Of a DNA stretch of 64,000 nucleotides, positions 1,559 through 51,392 are shown piece after piece. Positions within the stretch are counted from its first letter, which is position 1; each line of letters opens with the position of its first letter. A program made the translations under genes and the position numbers. The notes beneath the pieces are model-generated. The model did not search any database, had not been told where the DNA came from, and worked only from the letters and a program-made list of their open reading frames with translations. Source of the DNA: Escherichia phage MLP3; sequence record OK148440; one strand, given 5' to 3'.

Positions 1559-1762
1559 TTAGATAGTGCAACCATCGCAGATGTAATCTCCGCTTAGAGA
1601 CTCTTGCAAGAGCCGGGATTGTTCATCTGATACCAACTTGTCAACCTCTTCTTTCAGAGCCATAAGGTCAACAAAGGTTAGTAGCTCGTGTCGGTCAGCA
1701 ATCACTTGGTATTTGTAGTCATTAGTATGTGGTGCGCTTTGTACGACGTAAATATTAGACAT
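1559..1762 (-). CDS. hypothetical protein
   Basis: ORF in co-directional tightly packed minus-strand array. Confidence 0.45.
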   Translation of the reverse strand: MSNIYVVQSAPHTNDYKYQVIADRHELLTFVDLMALKEEVDKLVSDEQSRLLQESLSGDYICDGCTI

Positions 1763-1986
1763 TATAAGATCTCCCTTTGTTTAGCGTTAATGACTGACAT
1801 TGCTGTGATTGGGTTGTTTGTTCCAAGATACTCTAGAACAGGTGGACTACTAACTGGTTTACCAGCCTCCACGTAATTCTTAACCTTTCCACCAAGAACT
1901 GCTAGAGAAGCCTGAGCTTCTGCTTCATCAGTATGAACTCGGTCAACTACTTTCTTTCCAATCTTATAAGTATGAACCCAAATCAT
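1762..1986 (-). CDS. hypothetical protein
   Basis: ORF in minus-strand array, abutting neighbours. Confidence 0.45.
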   Translation of the reverse strand: MIWVHTYKIGKKVVDRVHTDEAEAQASLAVLGGKVKNYVEAGKPVSSPPVLEYLGTNNPITAMSVINAKQREIL

Positions 1987-2189
1987 TTAACTTCCTCAAT
2001 ATCAACTAGTTCAAAACTTCCTATTTCTTCAAGCTGGATAATCTCTTTAACCTTCTCAACAGCTTTAATAGGGTTTTCTTCTTCTACAACTTTACACCCT
2101 GACACTTCAAGACTGCCTGTTCCACGAAGGTATAAATTCAACTTATAAACTACTTTGTAGTATTTCATCGTGCTCCCAATTTCTTTCAT
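1983..2189 (-). CDS. hypothetical protein
   Basis: ORF with 4-nt overlap to upstream gene. Confidence 0.45.
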   Translation of the reverse strand: MKEIGSTMKYYKVVYKLNLYLRGTGSLEVSGCKVVEEENPIKAVEKVKEIIQLEEIGSFELVDIEEVK

Positions 2190-2322
2190 AATATCCAGAG
2201 TTGTAGTTTAGGGCGCATTTCTCGGCCTCTTCTATGTCGTCTGTGTTTAGGATATTAACCCAACCACCAACTTCATCAAAACCCTCTTCTACCTCATTGA
2301 ACCACACGCTGTATTTCTTCAT
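2143..2322 (-). CDS. hypothetical acidic protein (alternative longer start at 2358)
   Basis: Internal ATG at 2322 forms ATGA overlap with stop of the upstream small ORF. Confidence 0.4.
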   Translation of the reverse strand: MKKYSVWFNEVEEGFDEVGGWVNILNTDDIEEAEKCALNYNSGYYERNWEHDEILQSSL

Positions 2323-2498
2323 CTTGATAAGACCCTTCCCCAATCCTTGATGTAACATCGACCATCAACCCACTTGGTCTCTGATTTAAACTCTTGAGAG
2401 ATTCTTGTTTCACAGTCTTCTTTACTGTAATCACCAAGAGCATCCATCACCCAAAGAAACAGAGCAATTACAATAGACCAGATTAGAAACTTCTTCAT
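2319..2498 (-). CDS. small membrane protein (59 aa)
   Basis: ATG at 2498 overlapping stop of 2495..2887 gene (ATGA); hydrophobic N-terminal segment IWSIVIALFLWVM; below ORF-track size cutoff. Confidence 0.35.
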   Translation of the reverse strand: MKKFLIWSIVIALFLWVMDALGDYSKEDCETRISQEFKSETKWVDGRCYIKDWGRVLSR

Positions 2499-2887
2499 CG
2501 TATCACCAGAGGCTCTTCAGAGTACACAGGAGAGGCTATTTCTACCGGAGGTGCTGCTCTAAGGTCATTAAGCCTTACGCCCTTCAGCATACCATCTAGG
2601 TGGTCCATTTTAGGGATACCTACAGGGAAGTCATCAATCCAAACATCCACAAAGAAACCCAAGCTCTGAGTGACGGAATCCTTCTGAACACCATTGCAAA
2701 AGATAACAGGAATATCTAGACTTGCTGCATCTGCTAGAAGCTCCTCATTTGAATACCCATTAGGTTGAGCAAAACGATAGGTGACAATACGAACATCATG
2801 TCCACGAGATTTCATAAGACCTACAATGTGGGTCCACATCTCTTTGTCCACTGTAAAAGTATCATCATAATCTAAACCAATATTCAT
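2495..2887 (-). CDS. HAD-like hydrolase (putative nucleotidase/phosphatase)
   Basis: N-terminal DYDDT matches HAD motif I DxDxT; size about 130 aa. Confidence 0.5.
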   Translation of the reverse strand: MNIGLDYDDTFTVDKEMWTHIVGLMKSRGHDVRIVTYRFAQPNGYSNEELLADAASLDIPVIFCNGVQKDSVTQSLGFFVDVWIDDFPVGIPKMDHLDGMLKGVRLNDLRAAPPVEIASPVYSEEPLVIR

Positions 2888-2898
2888 ATTAGCCTCTT

Positions 2899-2927
2899 AG
2901 ACAAGAAAAGCCACCCGAAGGTAGCTT
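2899..2927 (-). terminator. intrinsic terminator-like hairpin
   Basis: Minus strand AGCTACC-TTCG-GGTGGCT followed by TTTTCTTGTC immediately after stop of 2926..3171 gene. Confidence 0.45.
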
Positions 2928-3171
2928 ATTTATTCTGTGTTTCCAGTTCGCTGATACGAACTTTCAAACCGTTAATCTCAGCCTGAGCAGCTTCTAGTTT
3001 AATTAGAGCTTCTTCAGCGTCAGCTTCTGTTTGAAGAACCGCAGTGGTTAGTTCGTATAAAGCTTGGCGGAGAGAATCTTTTCCCATAGCATGAATCTGT
3101 GCAACAAAGAATTGCTTACCTTCCGTGGTTTCCAAAGTCTCTTTTAATTCTTTAGATGTTAAAGTCATCAT
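2926..3171 (-). CDS. coiled-coil protein
   Basis: 81-aa helical, heptad-like sequence; SD GGGAG upstream of ATGATG. Confidence 0.5.
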   Translation of the reverse strand: MMTLTSKELKETLETTEGKQFFVAQIHAMGKDSLRQALYELTTAVLQTEADAEEALIKLEAAQAEINGLKVRISELETQNK

Positions 3172-3338
3172 TACTCCCTTTCATAAATTTTAAGAACTGT
3201 ACCGCCATCTGCTTCAATCTGAGCAACTACTTCATCGCGCTCTTCATCAGAATAAACCAGTTGGTTGTGAAATTTGCCTGTACTATCTTGGAAATACACA
3301 TTCCATTTTGGAGCAGGTTTACGAATCAAATCCATCAT
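3171..3338 (-). CDS. small hypothetical protein (55 aa)
   Basis: ATG at 3338 with AGGAG 9 nt upstream; stop overlaps next start as TAATG. Confidence 0.3.
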   Translation of the reverse strand: MMDLIRKPAPKWNVYFQDSTGKFHNQLVYSDEERDEVVAQIEADGGTVLKIYERE

Positions 3339-3550
3339 TGATCTTTCTCCTCTCGTTCAACCCATGTATGGAAAAGCTCCCCATACACTTTGGCATCATC
3401 AAAACGTCCTTCTTCCTGTGCGAGTTTTTGTTGCTTCAAGCACCATTCAGAACTTTTTACTTCTTCCACTTCCTTGTCTCCTTAAAAAGAACTAATCAAT
3501 AAGACTAGTTCATTTCGTAATACGATTCAGCTCTTCCACTGAACTAATCA

Positions 3551-3862
3551 CTACTTCTCCACCACAAAGAGGTTAACTTCAATGAAAGTTTCGTATTGTG
3601 TTGACTCCTGCTTACGGGTGTAGTAGAAATGACGACCTTCTAATGCACCTCCGTACTGAGTGGCACATCTTTTAACCATCTCTTTTATCACATCTACAAC
3701 TGATTCGCCTTTCCACGGACGTAACCCCTGAGTTGGGACTTTTGCTGTACAGGTTACTTGTGTGTAACCTACATCTTGTAGAGATATCTCAAGAATCAGC
3801 TTTGCCCAAGCATCAAAATTAAGCTTGGGGTTATATTTAACTTCAGTTTTGATATCAATCAT
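3551..3862 (-). CDS. hypothetical protein
   Basis: 103-aa ORF directly downstream of polymerase gene with ATGA overlap. Confidence 0.5.
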   Translation of the reverse strand: MIDIKTEVKYNPKLNFDAWAKLILEISLQDVGYTQVTCTAKVPTQGLRPWKGESVVDVIKEMVKRCATQYGGALEGRHFYYTRKQESTQYETFIEVNLFVVEK

Positions 3863-5709
3863 TAGTGAGTATGATTCCAGTTTAATCCAATCTTACAATC
3901 TGATGCAAGAGGACATTCCATCTTGAGGTATTCCCCTGCTTTACGAACACATTCTTCAGTGAGGATACGAAGTTTGTTAACATCATCACGATGTACAGTG
4001 AACTGTCCTTCATCATGCATGTCAATAACCTTCGCACAACGAACACCATCCCGCTCAATCCATTTATTGAGGAATAGCATTGCATACTTCATAACAATCG
4101 CCCCAGCGCTCTGTAAGAGTGTATTTAAGGCTTTATGGACCATAACCTTTCCAGTTGCATCTCTTCTCATTGTAATACGACGTCCATCCACACCGTAGAT
4201 GTATCCACTTTGCGCTTTCTCTGTCATACGTTCAATAAGGATTGCAATACAAGGGTTCTCTGCTAAGAATCTTGCTCTCATGATAGCCCCTTCGTCAGAG
4301 CCACCACCTACAATACTTCCTAATTTAGCGTCACCTGCCCCATAGTTAAAGGCATATATAAACGTCTTAGCGTTATCACGAGTAGGAAGACCAGCAAGTT
4401 TTTGGTTATGTGAGTGAATGTCTCCTTCTAAAAGAATATCTCTGTACATAACAGCAGAAGCTAGACCACGTTCAGCTTCTCGTTTCTTAGCCGGGTTGTT
4501 TTCTCGCTCTGCTTCAGCGAGCATCTCACGACATTCTTTAATAAGGTAGTGAGCTAGCATCCTCAGCTCAAGACCAGAGCCATCGTAACCTAAGAAGATT
4601 TCACGACCAGCAGGAACATAGAACTTATAGGCACCTACAGGTTTGTCTTTCTTGCCCGGTTTTCCCACTTCGTAGATAATGTTAGTACCCTTTCGTACGT
4701 AACACCCATCAGGGATATGGTTGGTAATGATGAAAGGATGGTTATGACTATCGTCTGAGGAATAGTCAGATTGAAAAAGACTGCGGCACTCGTGACCAAA
4801 CAAACCGCGAGAAGGAATATTAACAACAATGCGATGTTTAAAACGAAATGTCGGAGTAGCGCAGCTATTAGCTTCGGCGGACAACTTACCATCTTTACGT
4901 TCCTTGTCGATAAGCCCGCTAATCAAACCTAGCCTGTGAGCCGCTACAACGCGTCTCTTAAGCAAACTTCCTACACCCCCTAGCTCACCCCCAAGCCCCT
5001 CTTCAAGAGTCTCCTCAAGGTTTGTAGGGGCTGTGGGCCACTTGTTTGATGTAGCCAAAGCTTTTTTGATTTCATCAAAGGTTACAGGTTTCTTCCTATT
5101 CGGATTAAGACCTAAACCACTGACGTAGGCTTTCATGTAGTTGACAGTGTGATAACGGAAATGTTTATCCAAAAATCTTCGGATATCAGCATCTATCATC
5201 TCCGCTGTCTGTTTCTCTTTAGCATTACCTCGAATCCAAGCAGAATACCATGCAGAGTATGTACCATACTTCTTCATAGCTCTACGGATTTCAAATGTAT
5301 TCCAAGGTTTCTTAGAATAATTCCACTCTGGAGGTATGAAGCCCTCATCCATCAAGGCTTCTTTAATACGTGCATCTTTCGATGGGTCGAAGTCTACATA
5401 CTCAACGCAAGTAAACGCCCCACCGATATCTTCTCTTTTAAGACCAACCCTATCGCAATAGAGCTGAGGCCACTTCTGTAAAGCACCTGATTTCTTAAAA
5501 GGCTTAGCATAAGTTGAACCATCCACCCGCATTTTAGGGAGGAGAGGAATCAGTTCTTTATCAATATTGACAATAATCTCTTTGAGAAGGTGAACAAACC
5601 ACCGAGCGTTTCTTCTGTTGAAGTTGACTCCATGCTTCGCTTGTTTTGAGATTATATCAGCGACTGTCATCTCCGTTATGAAAGGTAACTTATCAGGGTT
5701 ATCCATCAC
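3862..5709 (-). CDS. DNA polymerase, family A polymerase domain (no exonuclease domain)
   Basis: Motif A DGSGLELRMLAHY, motif B RDNAKTFIYAFNYGAG, motif C VIDMHDE. Confidence 0.9.
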   Translation of the reverse strand: MMDNPDKLPFITEMTVADIISKQAKHGVNFNRRNARWFVHLLKEIIVNIDKELIPLLPKMRVDGSTYAKPFKKSGALQKWPQLYCDRVGLKREDIGGAFTCVEYVDFDPSKDARIKEALMDEGFIPPEWNYSKKPWNTFEIRRAMKKYGTYSAWYSAWIRGNAKEKQTAEMIDADIRRFLDKHFRYHTVNYMKAYVSGLGLNPNRKKPVTFDEIKKALATSNKWPTAPTNLEETLEEGLGGELGGVGSLLKRRVVAAHRLGLISGLIDKERKDGKLSAEANSCATPTFRFKHRIVVNIPSRGLFGHECRSLFQSDYSSDDSHNHPFIITNHIPDGCYVRKGTNIIYEVGKPGKKDKPVGAYKFYVPAGREIFLGYDGSGLELRMLAHYLIKECREMLAEAERENNPAKKREAERGLASAVMYRDILLEGDIHSHNQKLAGLPTRDNAKTFIYAFNYGAGDAKLGSIVGGGSDEGAIMRARFLAENPCIAILIERMTEKAQSGYIYGVDGRRITMRRDATGKVMVHKALNTLLQSAGAIVMKYAMLFLNKWIERDGVRCAKVIDMHDEGQFTVHRDDVNKLRILTEECVRKAGEYLKMECPLASDCKIGLNWNHTH

Positions 5710-48419: not shown

Positions 48420-48459
48420 TCGACAAATTTATTTTTAATAGTATAGGAGCTAATATAAC

Positions 48460-49515
48460 ATGGCAAATCCAACTTTATTTGTATCTTACGACCAGAATGG
48501 TAAAAAACTTTCTTTTGCTAACTGGATTTCTGTCCTGTCTCCGCAAGACACTCCGTTTGTGTCTATGACTGGTAAAGAGTCTATCAATCAGACTATTTTC
48601 AGCTGGCAGACCGATGCTCTGGCGAGCGTAGATGCTAACAACGCCCACGTCGAAGGCTCTCGTGCTGAAGACGGCGAAATGAAACCGACTGTAATCAAGT
48701 CCAACGTTACTCAGATCCTGCGTAAAGTTGTTCGTGTTTCTGATACTGCTAACACCACCGCTAACTACGGTCGTGGTCGTGAACTGATGTATCAGCTGGA
48801 GAAGAAAGGTAAAGAGATTAAACGTGACCTCGAGAAAATCCTGCTGTCCGGTCAGGCTCGTACCGATATTCTGGCAGACCAGTATCTGACCAACTCTGCA
48901 ACTGATCCTGCTGTTGTAGGTCAGAATGATACCTCAGCTGCTCGTAAGACTGGTGCTTTCCAGTTCCTGTGTGCACACAATGGTGTTGCTGGTGGTGTTG
49001 TTAAGAAAGAAGATGGTCCTGCTGACCCGGATACTGGTGCAGTAACTGTTAAAGTTGCACAGAATGCTTCTAACCCGACTACTAACATCGGTTTTGATGA
49101 AGCTGATATCTTTGATATGACTCTGCAATTGTATACCGCTGGTTCTGAAGCAGACATCATCATGATTAACCCTGCTCACGCTAGTATCTTTGCTAAGCTT
49201 CAGGAAAACTCTGTTGGTTCTCGTCAGCGTATCTTTGAGAACACCAAACAGTTCATCTATGAAGTTAACAGCATCACTGACCCGCTGGGCCAGAGCTATA
49301 AAATCATCGTTAACCGTTGGATGCCTGCTGATGCAGTTTACTTCTTCCGCAGCTCTGACTGGACTCAGATGGTTCTTCGTGCTCCGAAACGTACTGAACT
49401 GGCTAAAGATGGTTCTTACGAGAAGTGGATGATTGAAATGGAAGTTGGTCTGCGTCACCGCAACCCGTATGCTTCCGGCGTTCTGTTCACTGCTGCGGGA
49501 AAGGTGGCGGCGTAA
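48460..49515 (+). CDS. major capsid protein
   Basis: 351-aa ORF after scaffold gene; strong SD; highly biased codon usage. Confidence 0.8.
   Translation: MANPTLFVSYDQNGKKLSFANWISVLSPQDTPFVSMTGKESINQTIFSWQTDALASVDANNAHVEGSRAEDGEMKPTVIKSNVTQILRKVVRVSDTANTTANYGRGRELMYQLEKKGKEIKRDLEKILLSGQARTDILADQYLTNSATDPAVVGQNDTSAARKTGAFQFLCAHNGVAGGVVKKEDGPADPDTGAVTVKVAQNASNPTTNIGFDEADIFDMTLQLYTAGSEADIIMINPAHASIFAKLQENSVGSRQRIFENTKQFIYEVNSITDPLGQSYKIIVNRWMPADAVYFFRSSDWTQMVLRAPKRTELAKDGSYEKWMIEMEVGLRHRNPYASGVLFTAAGKVAA
49497..49503 (+). other. candidate -1 programmed frameshift slippery heptamer G_GGA_AAG
   Basis: X_XXY_YYZ motif 4 codons before capsid stop; -1 frame continues open into the Ig-like ORF. Confidence 0.5.
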
Positions 49516-50039
49516 CAGTAGACAGTGTGACTGTTAGCCCTGCGTCTTTAGCAAGCCTAGAGACAGGGGCTACTCGGCAGTTCACTGCAAGCGCGGAGAA
49601 AAGTGATGGTTCTACCGAAACAACTGGCTTTACTTGGTCAGTGACAGGAGGTGGTTCTATCACTCAGTCGGGTTTGTATACTGCTCCGAGTGCGTCTCAA
49701 TCCACTGATGTATCCATTACTGCAACTTTAGAAGGTGTTTCTGGTACAGCAACCATTTCTGAAATTGTTGCTCCTGCTCCTACTATTGTAGCTAAGGGTC
49801 CAATTACGGGTAAAACTGGTGGTTCTTCCACTAACTTCACTACCATGTTTACTGTAACTAATTCTACTGCTGCGGATTACACGTTTGTTGTAACCCCTAC
49901 AGAAGCTGGTACAGTAAGCGCCGCTGGTGCGTTAACCTTAGATGCTGCTGCAAGTGGCGAAGTTACTGTTCAAGCAAGTTTGACAGCTGACCCGTCCATC
50001 AATGCAACATGCACTTTTACTGGTGTAACACCTGCTTAA
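49497..50039 (+). CDS. Ig-like (Big_2-type) C-terminal extension of capsid protein, expressed by -1 frameshift (long form)
   Basis: -1 frame from the slippery site is open to 50039; Thr/Ser/Gly-rich beta-strand sequence typical of Ig-like domains; no SD for an independent start at 49527. Confidence 0.5.
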   Translation, partial: GKGGGVTVDSVTVSPASLASLETGATRQFTASAEKSDGSTETTGFTWSVTGGGSITQSGLYTAPSASQSTDVSITATLEGVSGTATISEIVAPAPTIVAKGPITGKTGGSSTNFTTMFTVTNSTAADYTFVVTPTEAGTVSAAGALTLDAAASGEVTVQASLTADPSINATCTFTGVTPA

Positions 50040-50046
50040 AACTAGA

Positions 50047-50076
50047 CCCTGCCTTCGGGCGGGGTTTTTTCGTTTT
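50047..50076 (+). terminator. rho-independent terminator after capsid module
   Basis: CCCTGCC-TTCG-GGCGGGG followed by TTTTTT. Confidence 0.7.
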
Positions 50077-50140
50077 AAGACCTATACAAGCTAGTGTGTA
50101 ATGTATATTCTTTGTCTACATATAACAAGGAGGACAACCT

Positions 50141-50653
50141 ATGGCAATGCCAGATTTCAGAGGAGCTTTTACATATAACCCAAATACAGGGCATCTTTTC
50201 TGGTCTATGAGTAACATATTCAATAAACAGAAAGGTCAACGTGCTGGATGTATTAATAGTAAGGGATATCGTGTGTTAACCTTCAAGAAGAAATCTTACC
50301 TAGAGCATAGAGTCATAGCTGAACTCTTTCTTCCTAAAGTAGAAGGGAAGGAGTATGTCAACCATAAGAATGGAATAAAAGATGACAACAGGATTGAGAA
50401 GCTAGAGTGGTGTACTCAACAAGAAAACTGTGTACATGCTTATGAAACAAAACTCTCAACACCAAGGAATCTTGAGGATAATCCTAATTCCAAACTTACT
50501 AAAGAACAAGTTCTTTTCTGTTTAGAGAACTATAAACCGAGGGACAGACAGTTCGGAGCTAGAGCTTTAGCTAGGAAGTTTGGAGTCTCTTCAAGCACAA
50601 TAAGCCTAATAATCAATGGCACAAACTGGAAGGAGGTATCCTATGTTGCCTGA
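50141..50653 (+). CDS. HNH homing endonuclease
   Basis: HNH_3/NUMOD-like motifs YLEHRVIAELF, VNHKNGIKDDNRIEKLEW, QQEN; AT-rich insert between capsid and tail genes. Confidence 0.75.
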   Translation: MAMPDFRGAFTYNPNTGHLFWSMSNIFNKQKGQRAGCINSKGYRVLTFKKKSYLEHRVIAELFLPKVEGKEYVNHKNGIKDDNRIEKLEWCTQQENCVHAYETKLSTPRNLEDNPNSKLTKEQVLFCLENYKPRDRQFGARALARKFGVSSSTISLIINGTNWKEVSYVA

Positions 50654-51392
50654 CGTTCAATACCCCATCAATACCTATGGGTGGCTAAAGAAGGCCGTGT
50701 CCCTCTGGGCAGATAGGGACGATGACGAATTTGTTAATCAAATTCCAAACTTTATTAACTTTGCAGAGAAAGAGATTTATCGTAACTTACGTATTCCTCC
50801 TCTGGAAAAAGAAGTGTATTTAGATATTAAAGATGGAGTAGCTTATATTCCTCCTGATTACTTAGAAGCTCAATGGATGATGAGAGCCAAAGATGGCACA
50901 ATCTTCCAAGTAACCTCTCCTGAAGAGATTAGCTATCGTAGACAGCATGGAACAATTAACCCATCTCACTGGAATAACCAACCTGTCAACTTTGCTCGTT
51001 TCGGTAGTCGTTTCATTTTCTACCCTAGCATCGAAGCAGATACTCCGTACTACCCTGATGATGGAAGCCCTTTGATTCCAGCAGAAAACTCAGTGATTCT
51101 TAGCTATTATGCAGACCCACCGGAATTCCATGAAGATACAGATACTAGTACTATTCTTACTATAGCACCAGAACTTCTTCTGTACTTCACCCTACGTCAT
51201 GCTTGTCTCTTTGTTCAAGATGATAATGGTGTTCAGAAATGGTCAGCATTAGGAAAAGCTATCCTTGATGAAATAGTAGAGCAGAATAAGAAACAAGAGT
51301 ACTCAGGTTCACCTATCGCAATTCCGAATAACATGACTCGACTTCAGAGCAGCTTGCCTGATATTTATGGTATTCGTACTTCTCGTGTATAA
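50643..51392 (+). CDS. structural protein (putative head-tail or tail component)
   Basis: ATG at 50643 with AGGAGG 6 nt upstream (ORF-track start 50616 lacks SD); overlaps HNH stop. Confidence 0.5.
   Translation: MLPDVQYPINTYGWLKKAVSLWADRDDDEFVNQIPNFINFAEKEIYRNLRIPPLEKEVYLDIKDGVAYIPPDYLEAQWMMRAKDGTIFQVTSPEEISYRRQHGTINPSHWNNQPVNFARFGSRFIFYPSIEADTPYYPDDGSPLIPAENSVILSYYADPPEFHEDTDTSTILTIAPELLLYFTLRHACLFVQDDNGVQKWSALGKAILDEIVEQNKKQEYSGSPIAIPNNMTRLQSSLPDIYGIRTSRV

Follow-up and report, generated by a model that had tools for sequence, protein, structure and literature searches.

A predicted -1 frameshift that would add two Ig-like domains to the major capsid protein of Escherichia phage MLP3

The major capsid gene of Escherichia phage MLP3 (sequence record OK148440) very probably has two products, and we put at about 0.9 the probability that a -1 programmed frameshift on the heptamer G_GGA_AAG makes a minor long form of the capsid protein with two Ig-like domains. 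Positions given here are those of the window, that is, the whole stretch of 64,000 nucleotides that was analysed. An earlier note, made from the letters of the window, had proposed such a fusion, and the proposal is supported by conservation of the junction, by the lack of a conserved start codon for a separate product, by dN/dS and by publications on the group. Capsid frameshifting is not new in these phages, and the accompanying claim that Ig-like domains are added in this way elsewhere is borne out by published cases in phiEco32, SU10, Paul, Privateer and YF01. Nucleotide identity over the region is 99.6% with Escherichia phage 4E8, 99.1% with SU7 and IME267, and about 94% with phiEco32 and SU10, and by sequence the phage is a Kuravirus, a phiEco32/SU7-like coliphage.

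The slip site and the predicted long capsid form

The features of the locus are as follows.

48445-48449, plus strand: Shine-Dalgarno sequence AGGAG of the capsid gene, 10 nt upstream of the capsid ATG
48460..49515, plus strand: major capsid protein gene, 0 frame; HK97 fold, Pfam SU10_MCP at E 2.6e-79
49497..49503, plus strand: slippery heptamer G_GGA_AAG, putative -1 tandem tRNA slip site (GGA to GGG, AAG to AAA), from sequence and conservation
49513..49515, plus strand: 0-frame stop TAA of the short, major capsid form, from sequence and the list of open reading frames
49503..50039, plus strand: -1 frame extension, beginning with a Gly linker (GGG), from translation, dN/dS and PHROG
join(48460..49503,49503..50039), plus strand: predicted long capsid form, 526 aa, 55.6 kDa
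49509..49539, plus strand: candidate frameshift-stimulating stem-loop, GGC.G.UAACAGU / ACUGUUAGCC
49518..49757, plus strand: Ig-like domain 1 (Big_2), extension residues 8-87, from Pfam and an AlphaFold model
49537..49571, plus strand: conserved RNA hairpin within the Ig-coding sequence, with compensatory changes and present in the fold of every clade
49782..50030, plus strand: Ig-like domain 2, extension residues 96-178, Big_2-like by fold
50044..50077, plus strand: intrinsic terminator, 4 nt 3' of the -1 frame stop, end of the capsid transcription unit

The heptamer GGGAAAG at 49497-49503 stands in the register G_GGA_AAG (X_XXY_YYZ) within the 0-frame codons GCG GGA AAG GTG GCG GCG TAA, with its AAG four codons 5' of the capsid stop, just as had been claimed. 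No other in-frame X_XXY_YYZ heptamer occurs among the 351 codons of the capsid gene. In the 64-kb window the motif is if anything under-represented, with 3 copies observed against 7.75 expected, and neither of the two remaining copies lies in slip register inside a long ORF. Translation bore out the claimed -1 frame of about 180 codons ending at 50039: the frame is open over 49437-50039, counts 180 codons from the heptamer and stops at 50037-50039. Since it is closed upstream of 49437, any shift giving the fusion is confined to 49437-49515. Four nucleotides further on, the terminator that had been noted after the Ig ORF consists of a 10-bp stem at 50044-50067 with 6 G-C pairs and a loop of 4, followed by a T-run, and a terminator is annotated at the same place in the records of 4E8, SU10 and Paul.

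Under the preferred reading most ribosomes would stop at the TAA at 49513 and yield the 351-aa major capsid protein (38.6 kDa), while a minority would slip back by one base on 49497-49503, the tRNAs on GGA and AAG re-pairing with GGG and AAA, and would go on to read the GGG linker and two tandem Ig-like domains as far as the stop at 50037-50039. The computed mass of the long product, 55.6 kDa, agrees with the roughly 55 kDa that had been expected. The translated junction reads ...FTAAGK followed by GGGVTVDS..., the stretch of the predicted long form that spans it contains ...LFTAAGKGGGVTV..., and GGGVTVDSVTVSPASLASLETGATR is a predicted tryptic peptide whose sole possible source is translation of the -1 frame upstream of the GTG at 49527. 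The capsid protein itself, for which SU10_MCP is the sole Pfam family match, is nearly identical to the solved major head protein of SU10 (7z45, E 5e-222). Because the long form would contain the complete capsid protein, it would be expected to co-assemble in the shell; on the outer face of the prolate head, Ig domains would then be shown by a few percent of the subunits. Such outward display and an adhesion role for the domains are what we infer for the long form.

Lambda G/GT carries the identical heptamer G_GGA_AAG, which is read in E. coli. Recorded frameshift rates are about 3.5% for lambda and about 10% for the T3/T7 capsid gene (PMC9965538), and from the shared heptamer a rate like that of lambda, a few percent, would be expected here. 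The head of SU10 has 715 capsid subunits (PMC9509320), a few percent of which would amount to tens of Ig-bearing subunits per virion. The analogy with lambda is limited to the slip, as G/GT is a tail chaperone gene, its product is no component of the virion, and no Ig domain is added there.

The extension itself matches the PHROG family annotated as Ig domain containing protein (E 1.3e-80). The suggestion of a single Big_2-type domain held as to type and fell short as to number, as the model points to two. Domain 1 matches Pfam Big_2 over residues 8-85 (E 1.5e-5, 25.2 bits, with a gathering cut-off of 22.8 bits), while domain 2, at E 0.0034 and 17.7 bits, stays below that cut-off. An AlphaFold model of the extension, resting on 27 homologues, has a mean pLDDT of 96 and shows two beta-sandwich domains at residues 8-87 and 96-178; among PDB structures it comes closest to the segment of tandem Big_2 domains in the LigA protein of Leptospira (8gyr, E 6.9e-11). 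On the model, then, the extension is two tandem Ig-like domains of Big_2 type. Codon usage had been said to match that of the capsid gene, and this stands only weakly: both sequences favour NNT, which is a general preference of this phage, but their RSCU values correlate at only 0.09, and the extension lacks the strong codon bias of the capsid gene (Leu CTG 71% versus 0%, GC3 0.43 versus 0.28). Codon usage unlike that of the capsid gene is expected if the extension is rarely translated.

Conservation of the junction and competing readings

The comparison of the junction took in 21 Kuravirus-like loci, drawn from GenBank and IMG/VR, together with more distant relatives; of the 11 loci that the IMG/VR scan gave, 5 were Kuravirus-like. 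None of the 21 Kuravirus-like loci departs from GGGAAAG, and two Privateer-type phages, Privateer and vB_CsaP_009, have it as well. The 9-12 nt between the heptamer and the 0-frame stop differ among the Kuravirus-like loci, with indels that are multiples of 3, and these 3-nt changes of length in the overlap leave the -1 ORF linked to the heptamer. The linker read in the -1 frame stays Gly/Ser across loci (GGG, GGS, GSGG, GGSG, GSG); in the 0 frame the capsid tail drifts (VAA, AAA, AGA, AVAA, VEAA and others). The -1 ORF is 180, 181, 182, 266, 273, 372, 374, 459, 461 or 547 codons long among the relatives and is intact in 20 of 21, the one exception being SU10, where a 1-nt insertion ends the frame after 13 codons. 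For the extension, Nei-Gojobori estimates put dN/dS at 0.21-0.26 when it is read in the -1 frame and at 1.3-2.5 for the two remaining frames, compared with 0.09-0.11 for the capsid gene, and we take it from these sequence comparisons that purifying selection acts on the extension in the -1 frame only.

The strongest alternative, which we nonetheless consider very unlikely, is that the Ig domains belong to a separate gene, with a start or re-start at GTG 49527 giving a free two-domain protein. Such a product would be of 16.6 kDa, rather than the 18 kDa that had been quoted for it, and would either sit on the capsid as a non-covalent decoration, as Hoc and epsilon15 gp10 do, or have some other role. 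The GenBank records of 4E8, SU7 and phiEco32 are written in this way, with a 'major head protein' and a separate 'Ig domain containing protein' CDS from GTG 49527, and the SU10 structure paper considered that gp10 might be a minor capsid protein in its own right. With only 11 nt between the capsid stop and the GTG, termination-reinitiation is possible. However, as the earlier note had observed, the Ig ORF has no Shine-Dalgarno sequence of its own: there is none in the 18 nt before GTG 49527, nor before any candidate start. In most other clades (ECBP2, 172-1, Bas89, Paul, TH42 and EK010) the GTG is replaced by GTA or ATA, and the first ATG, GTG or TTG falls within the first Ig domain, after 17, 35, 48 or 74 codons of the extension, and yet the residues upstream of these later starts (VTVD.VTVSP...) are still conserved and under selection in the -1 frame. 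In the phage studied here, both the Big_2 match of domain 1 and its first beta-strand begin 5' of GTG 49527. Conservation of the heptamer and of its frame linkage would moreover have no reason under a separate gene. Taken together, the comparative results make an Ig protein with its own initiation hard to sustain, and gene callers give the Ig ORF arbitrary lengths of 110-254 aa.

It is still less probable that the heptamer is there and slippage is useless, the extension being an unexpressed or decaying remnant as in SU10. SU10 does propagate without an intact extension, thus the extension is not essential in the laboratory, and the cryo-EM head of SU10 shows no extra capsid density, nor was a long band seen (PMC9509320). 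As the -1 ORF of SU10 is truncated after 13 codons, its cryo-EM shows only that the extension is dispensable. Against a remnant stand the 180-codon frame, intact here and in all but one of the relatives, a dN/dS of about 0.2, domains modelled at the high pLDDT given above, and the enlargement of the extension up to 547 codons in relatives. Transcriptional slippage was rejected, the A run being only 3 nt long.

RNA structure downstream of the heptamer

Folding of the RNA downstream of the slip site, which the earlier note had listed as a check, gave a candidate stem-loop of 10 bp with one bulge at 49509-49539 (arms 49509-49519 and 49530-49539), of modest stability (-11.1 kcal/mol, z -1.4). The spacer from the heptamer is 5 nt, or 8 nt where a clade has 3 nt inserted. 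It pairs in 98.6% of cells over 14 distinct sequences, and its arms are invariant, hence without covariation. No strong, well-placed stimulatory structure was found near the slip site by folding and covariation across clades, no Shine-Dalgarno-like stimulator occurs in the 20 nt upstream of the heptamer, and an Rfam scan of 49300-50200 gave chance-level matches over the terminator only.

Compensatory change between clades was found in the hairpin at 49537-49571, with a stem at 49544-49548/49560-49564, where pair 49547:49561 is U-A, G-C or A-U and pair 49548:49560 is U-G or G-C; a synonymous Ser site covaries here with a non-synonymous E/Q/P/L site. The hairpin is paired in 99% of cells, as against 22-50% when the partner is slid. 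It begins 33 nt past the heptamer, which is too far for a classical stimulator. Among codons invariant in amino acid, 9 of 18 are fully invariant up to 29 codons past the slip site versus 3 of 27 beyond (Fisher p = 0.006; p = 0.05 without the codons constrained by the heptamer and the stop), which suggests RNA-level constraint of some kind after the slip site. The downstream hairpins may have a stimulatory role in frameshifting.

Several other candidates were set aside. The one structure that Mirzaei 2014 proposed, for SU10, is a stem enclosing the heptamer (PMC4281155). Here this stem (UGCUGC/GCGGCG) has -9.6 kcal/mol and z -0.3, with two pairs broken in the ECBP2 clade, and it would be no downstream barrier since its 5' arm is inside the ribosome during slippage. 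An 18-bp hairpin at 49529-49582 was rejected as a classical stimulator because it begins 25 nt past the heptamer; it is well conserved (99.6% of cells paired) and is kept as an alternative conformation. A pseudoknot between the G-rich spacer and the hairpin loop was dropped, as it had by eye 3 possible pairs and no consistent covariation.

A tentative idea, to which we give rather low odds, is that the first 30 or so codons after the slip site form a conserved two-hairpin RNA element, with adjacent or alternative hairpins, that tunes the rate of frameshifting. The segment ACUGUUAGCC could pair either with UAACAGU..GGC, 5 nt past the heptamer, or with GCAGUU further downstream. If such an element exists, it would determine or adjust how many subunits of each head bear Ig domains, and it would be a stimulator of unusual geometry, undescribed for this phage group.

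Known capsid extensions and the phage group

Slippage on GGGAAAG was described as fusing gp9 and gp10 of SU10 'as in phiEco32', and forms of 38.5 and 55.4 kDa were listed (Mirzaei 2014, PMC4281155). For phiEco32, the gp11/gp12 frameshift is credited to Savalia 2008 as cited in PMC4281155 and PMC7881722. For Privateer a frameshift signal was described, SDS-PAGE gave two bands of capsid protein, and mass spectrometry found the longer, minor form in virions (PMC7881722); a passage of the same paper states that the frameshifted product is seen in phiEco32 and SU10. The YF01 paper places the slip site across the whole Kuravirus-like group, including the truncation in SU10 (PMC9965538), with which the truncation found here agrees. 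By analogy with these papers on relatives, the long form would be expected in virions of the phage studied here.

The closest case is phiEco32, which has a homologous extension, 98.3% identical in nucleotides (about 98% over 49440-50039), and an identical junction, and essentially no difference from our phage. With phiEco32 and Paul the phage shares the capsid family, the position of the heptamer 12 nt before the end of the CDS, and the terminator, while the extension is far longer in Paul, where it has 547 codons, and in YF01. In GenBank the frameshift is entered as a join for both Paul and Privateer, and the note in the Paul record (MN045231) cites PMID 18294652 for phiEco32. Privateer is alike in having an SU10_MCP capsid protein and GGGAAAG at the end of the gene. 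However, Privateer and vB_CsaP_009 differ in that the capsid identity is 58%, the family is a different one and the heptamer abuts the stop (G_GGA_AAG_TAA), and their extension of 171 codons (I-set and Big_2) is not homologous in sequence. In Privateer a 10-bp hairpin begins 6 nt downstream of the heptamer.

A separate route to a comparable product is seen in Salmonella phage SE131, whose second capsid gene encodes SU10_MCP and two Big_2 domains in one frame (586 aa). SE131 and 7-11 resemble our phage in carrying an SU10_MCP core with C-terminal Big_2 domains beside a short capsid protein, but they got there by gene duplication and in-frame fusion, with no heptamer and no frameshift. From its sequence, the second capsid gene of SE131 is a natural in-frame equivalent of the predicted fusion. 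Similarity to the extension is weak in both cases (BLASTP E 0.24 for Privateer, E 0.005 for SE131), and the two are, as far as sequence goes, analogous modules that are not clearly orthologous.

T7 has a slip site unlike the one here, and its 10B extension is short and is not known to be a tandem Ig module. The capsid protein here matches SU10_MCP alone, and the likeness to gene 10A/10B is one of mechanism only. In T7 and T3 a -1 shift near the end of the capsid gene likewise yields a minor, longer, co-assembling subunit (PMC9965538). T4 Hoc-type decorations are separate products that bind the assembled shell, whereas here the domains would be covalently carried by a subset of the capsid subunits. 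As to function, surface-exposed Ig-like (Big_2/I-set) domains of phage capsids have been proposed to be weak binders of carbohydrate or cell surfaces (Fraser et al. 2006, as given in PMC9965538).

For the annotation of this genome, the frameshift reading means one product, the join given in the feature list, plus the short form. The RNA conservation downstream of the slip site and the contrast between frameshifting and gene duplication are modest additions that leave current understanding unchanged. The relatives vary the module (180-547 codons), lose it (SU10) or use a second capsid gene in its place (SE131), and the phage group is a convenient natural series for asking what Ig domains borne on a capsid do.

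Length and integrity of the Ig-like extension in close relatives

The extension, the -1 frame ORF that follows the slippery heptamer G_GGA_AAG and adds Ig-like (Big_2-type) domains to the major capsid protein, was found in discrete lengths of 180-182, 266-273, 372-374, 459-461 and 547 codons across the length series (L022 and L027-L034: Bas89, Paul, EP335, NC-B, Bas86, SR02, TH42, EK010). The step between length classes is ~90-100 codons, and this spacing suggests that whole Ig-like modules have been gained and lost among close relatives.

Phage SU10 (L001, KM044272) carries a 1-nt insertion 24 nt 3' of the heptamer, at about 2565-2580 of its locus. As a result the -1 ORF is cut short at 13 codons. 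The Ig ORF itself shares the 0 frame of the capsid gene, from which two stop codons separate it; the insertion accounts for the absence of a long band and of density in the SU10 cryo-EM study (PMC9509320). The 2014 proteomics table of the same phage gives a 55.4-kDa form (PMC4281155), with which the insertion is hard to square.

An HNH ORF downstream of the capsid unit

Two features follow the capsid unit:

50141-50653, + strand, HNH_3 homing-endonuclease ORF (Pfam E 1e-11)
50616-51392, adaptor gene

The HNH_3 ORF is bounded on one side by the capsid terminator and on the other by the adaptor gene, with which it shares a 38-nt overlap. The adaptor's ATG and ribosome-binding site lie within the stretch that the ORF occupies. 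It is missing in phage 4E8 (99.6% identical) and in most other Kuravirus-like loci; XT32 and Bas86 carry it at the identical site (98% and 74% aa, respectively). It looks like a sporadic mobile insertion.

Slippery heptamers in distant relatives

In Privateer (L004, 4461-4492) the heptamer runs straight into the stop codon (G_GGA_AAG_TAA). Downstream, at a distance of 6 nt, begins a hairpin of 10 bp (-10.8 kcal/mol, z -1.8), a geometry closer to the canonical stimulator than any seen in Kuravirus sequences. A different classic slippery heptamer was identified at the end of the capsid gene of a distant relative:

L021 (IMGVR_UViG_3300033688_000038), 3921-3927, A_AAA_AAG

The gene ends ...GT A_AAA_AAG GCG TAA, placing the heptamer 6 nt before the CDS end, and the -1 ORF comprises 44 Pro/Lys-rich codons. 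Heptamer and ORF may represent an independent short frameshift extension, or their co-occurrence may be due to chance.

Capsid paralogues in place of the frameshift

In three related prolate podophages the frameshift is replaced by two or three tandem capsid-gene paralogues:

SE131 (L006), 2485-5261, tandem capsid-gene paralogues
GAP52 (L009), 3492-5629, tandem capsid-gene paralogues
APT65 (L010), 1569-4427, tandem capsid-gene paralogues

The second copy in SE131 encodes 586 aa, with capsid and 2x Big_2 in frame. Capsid paralogues are another genetic route to short and long capsid forms.
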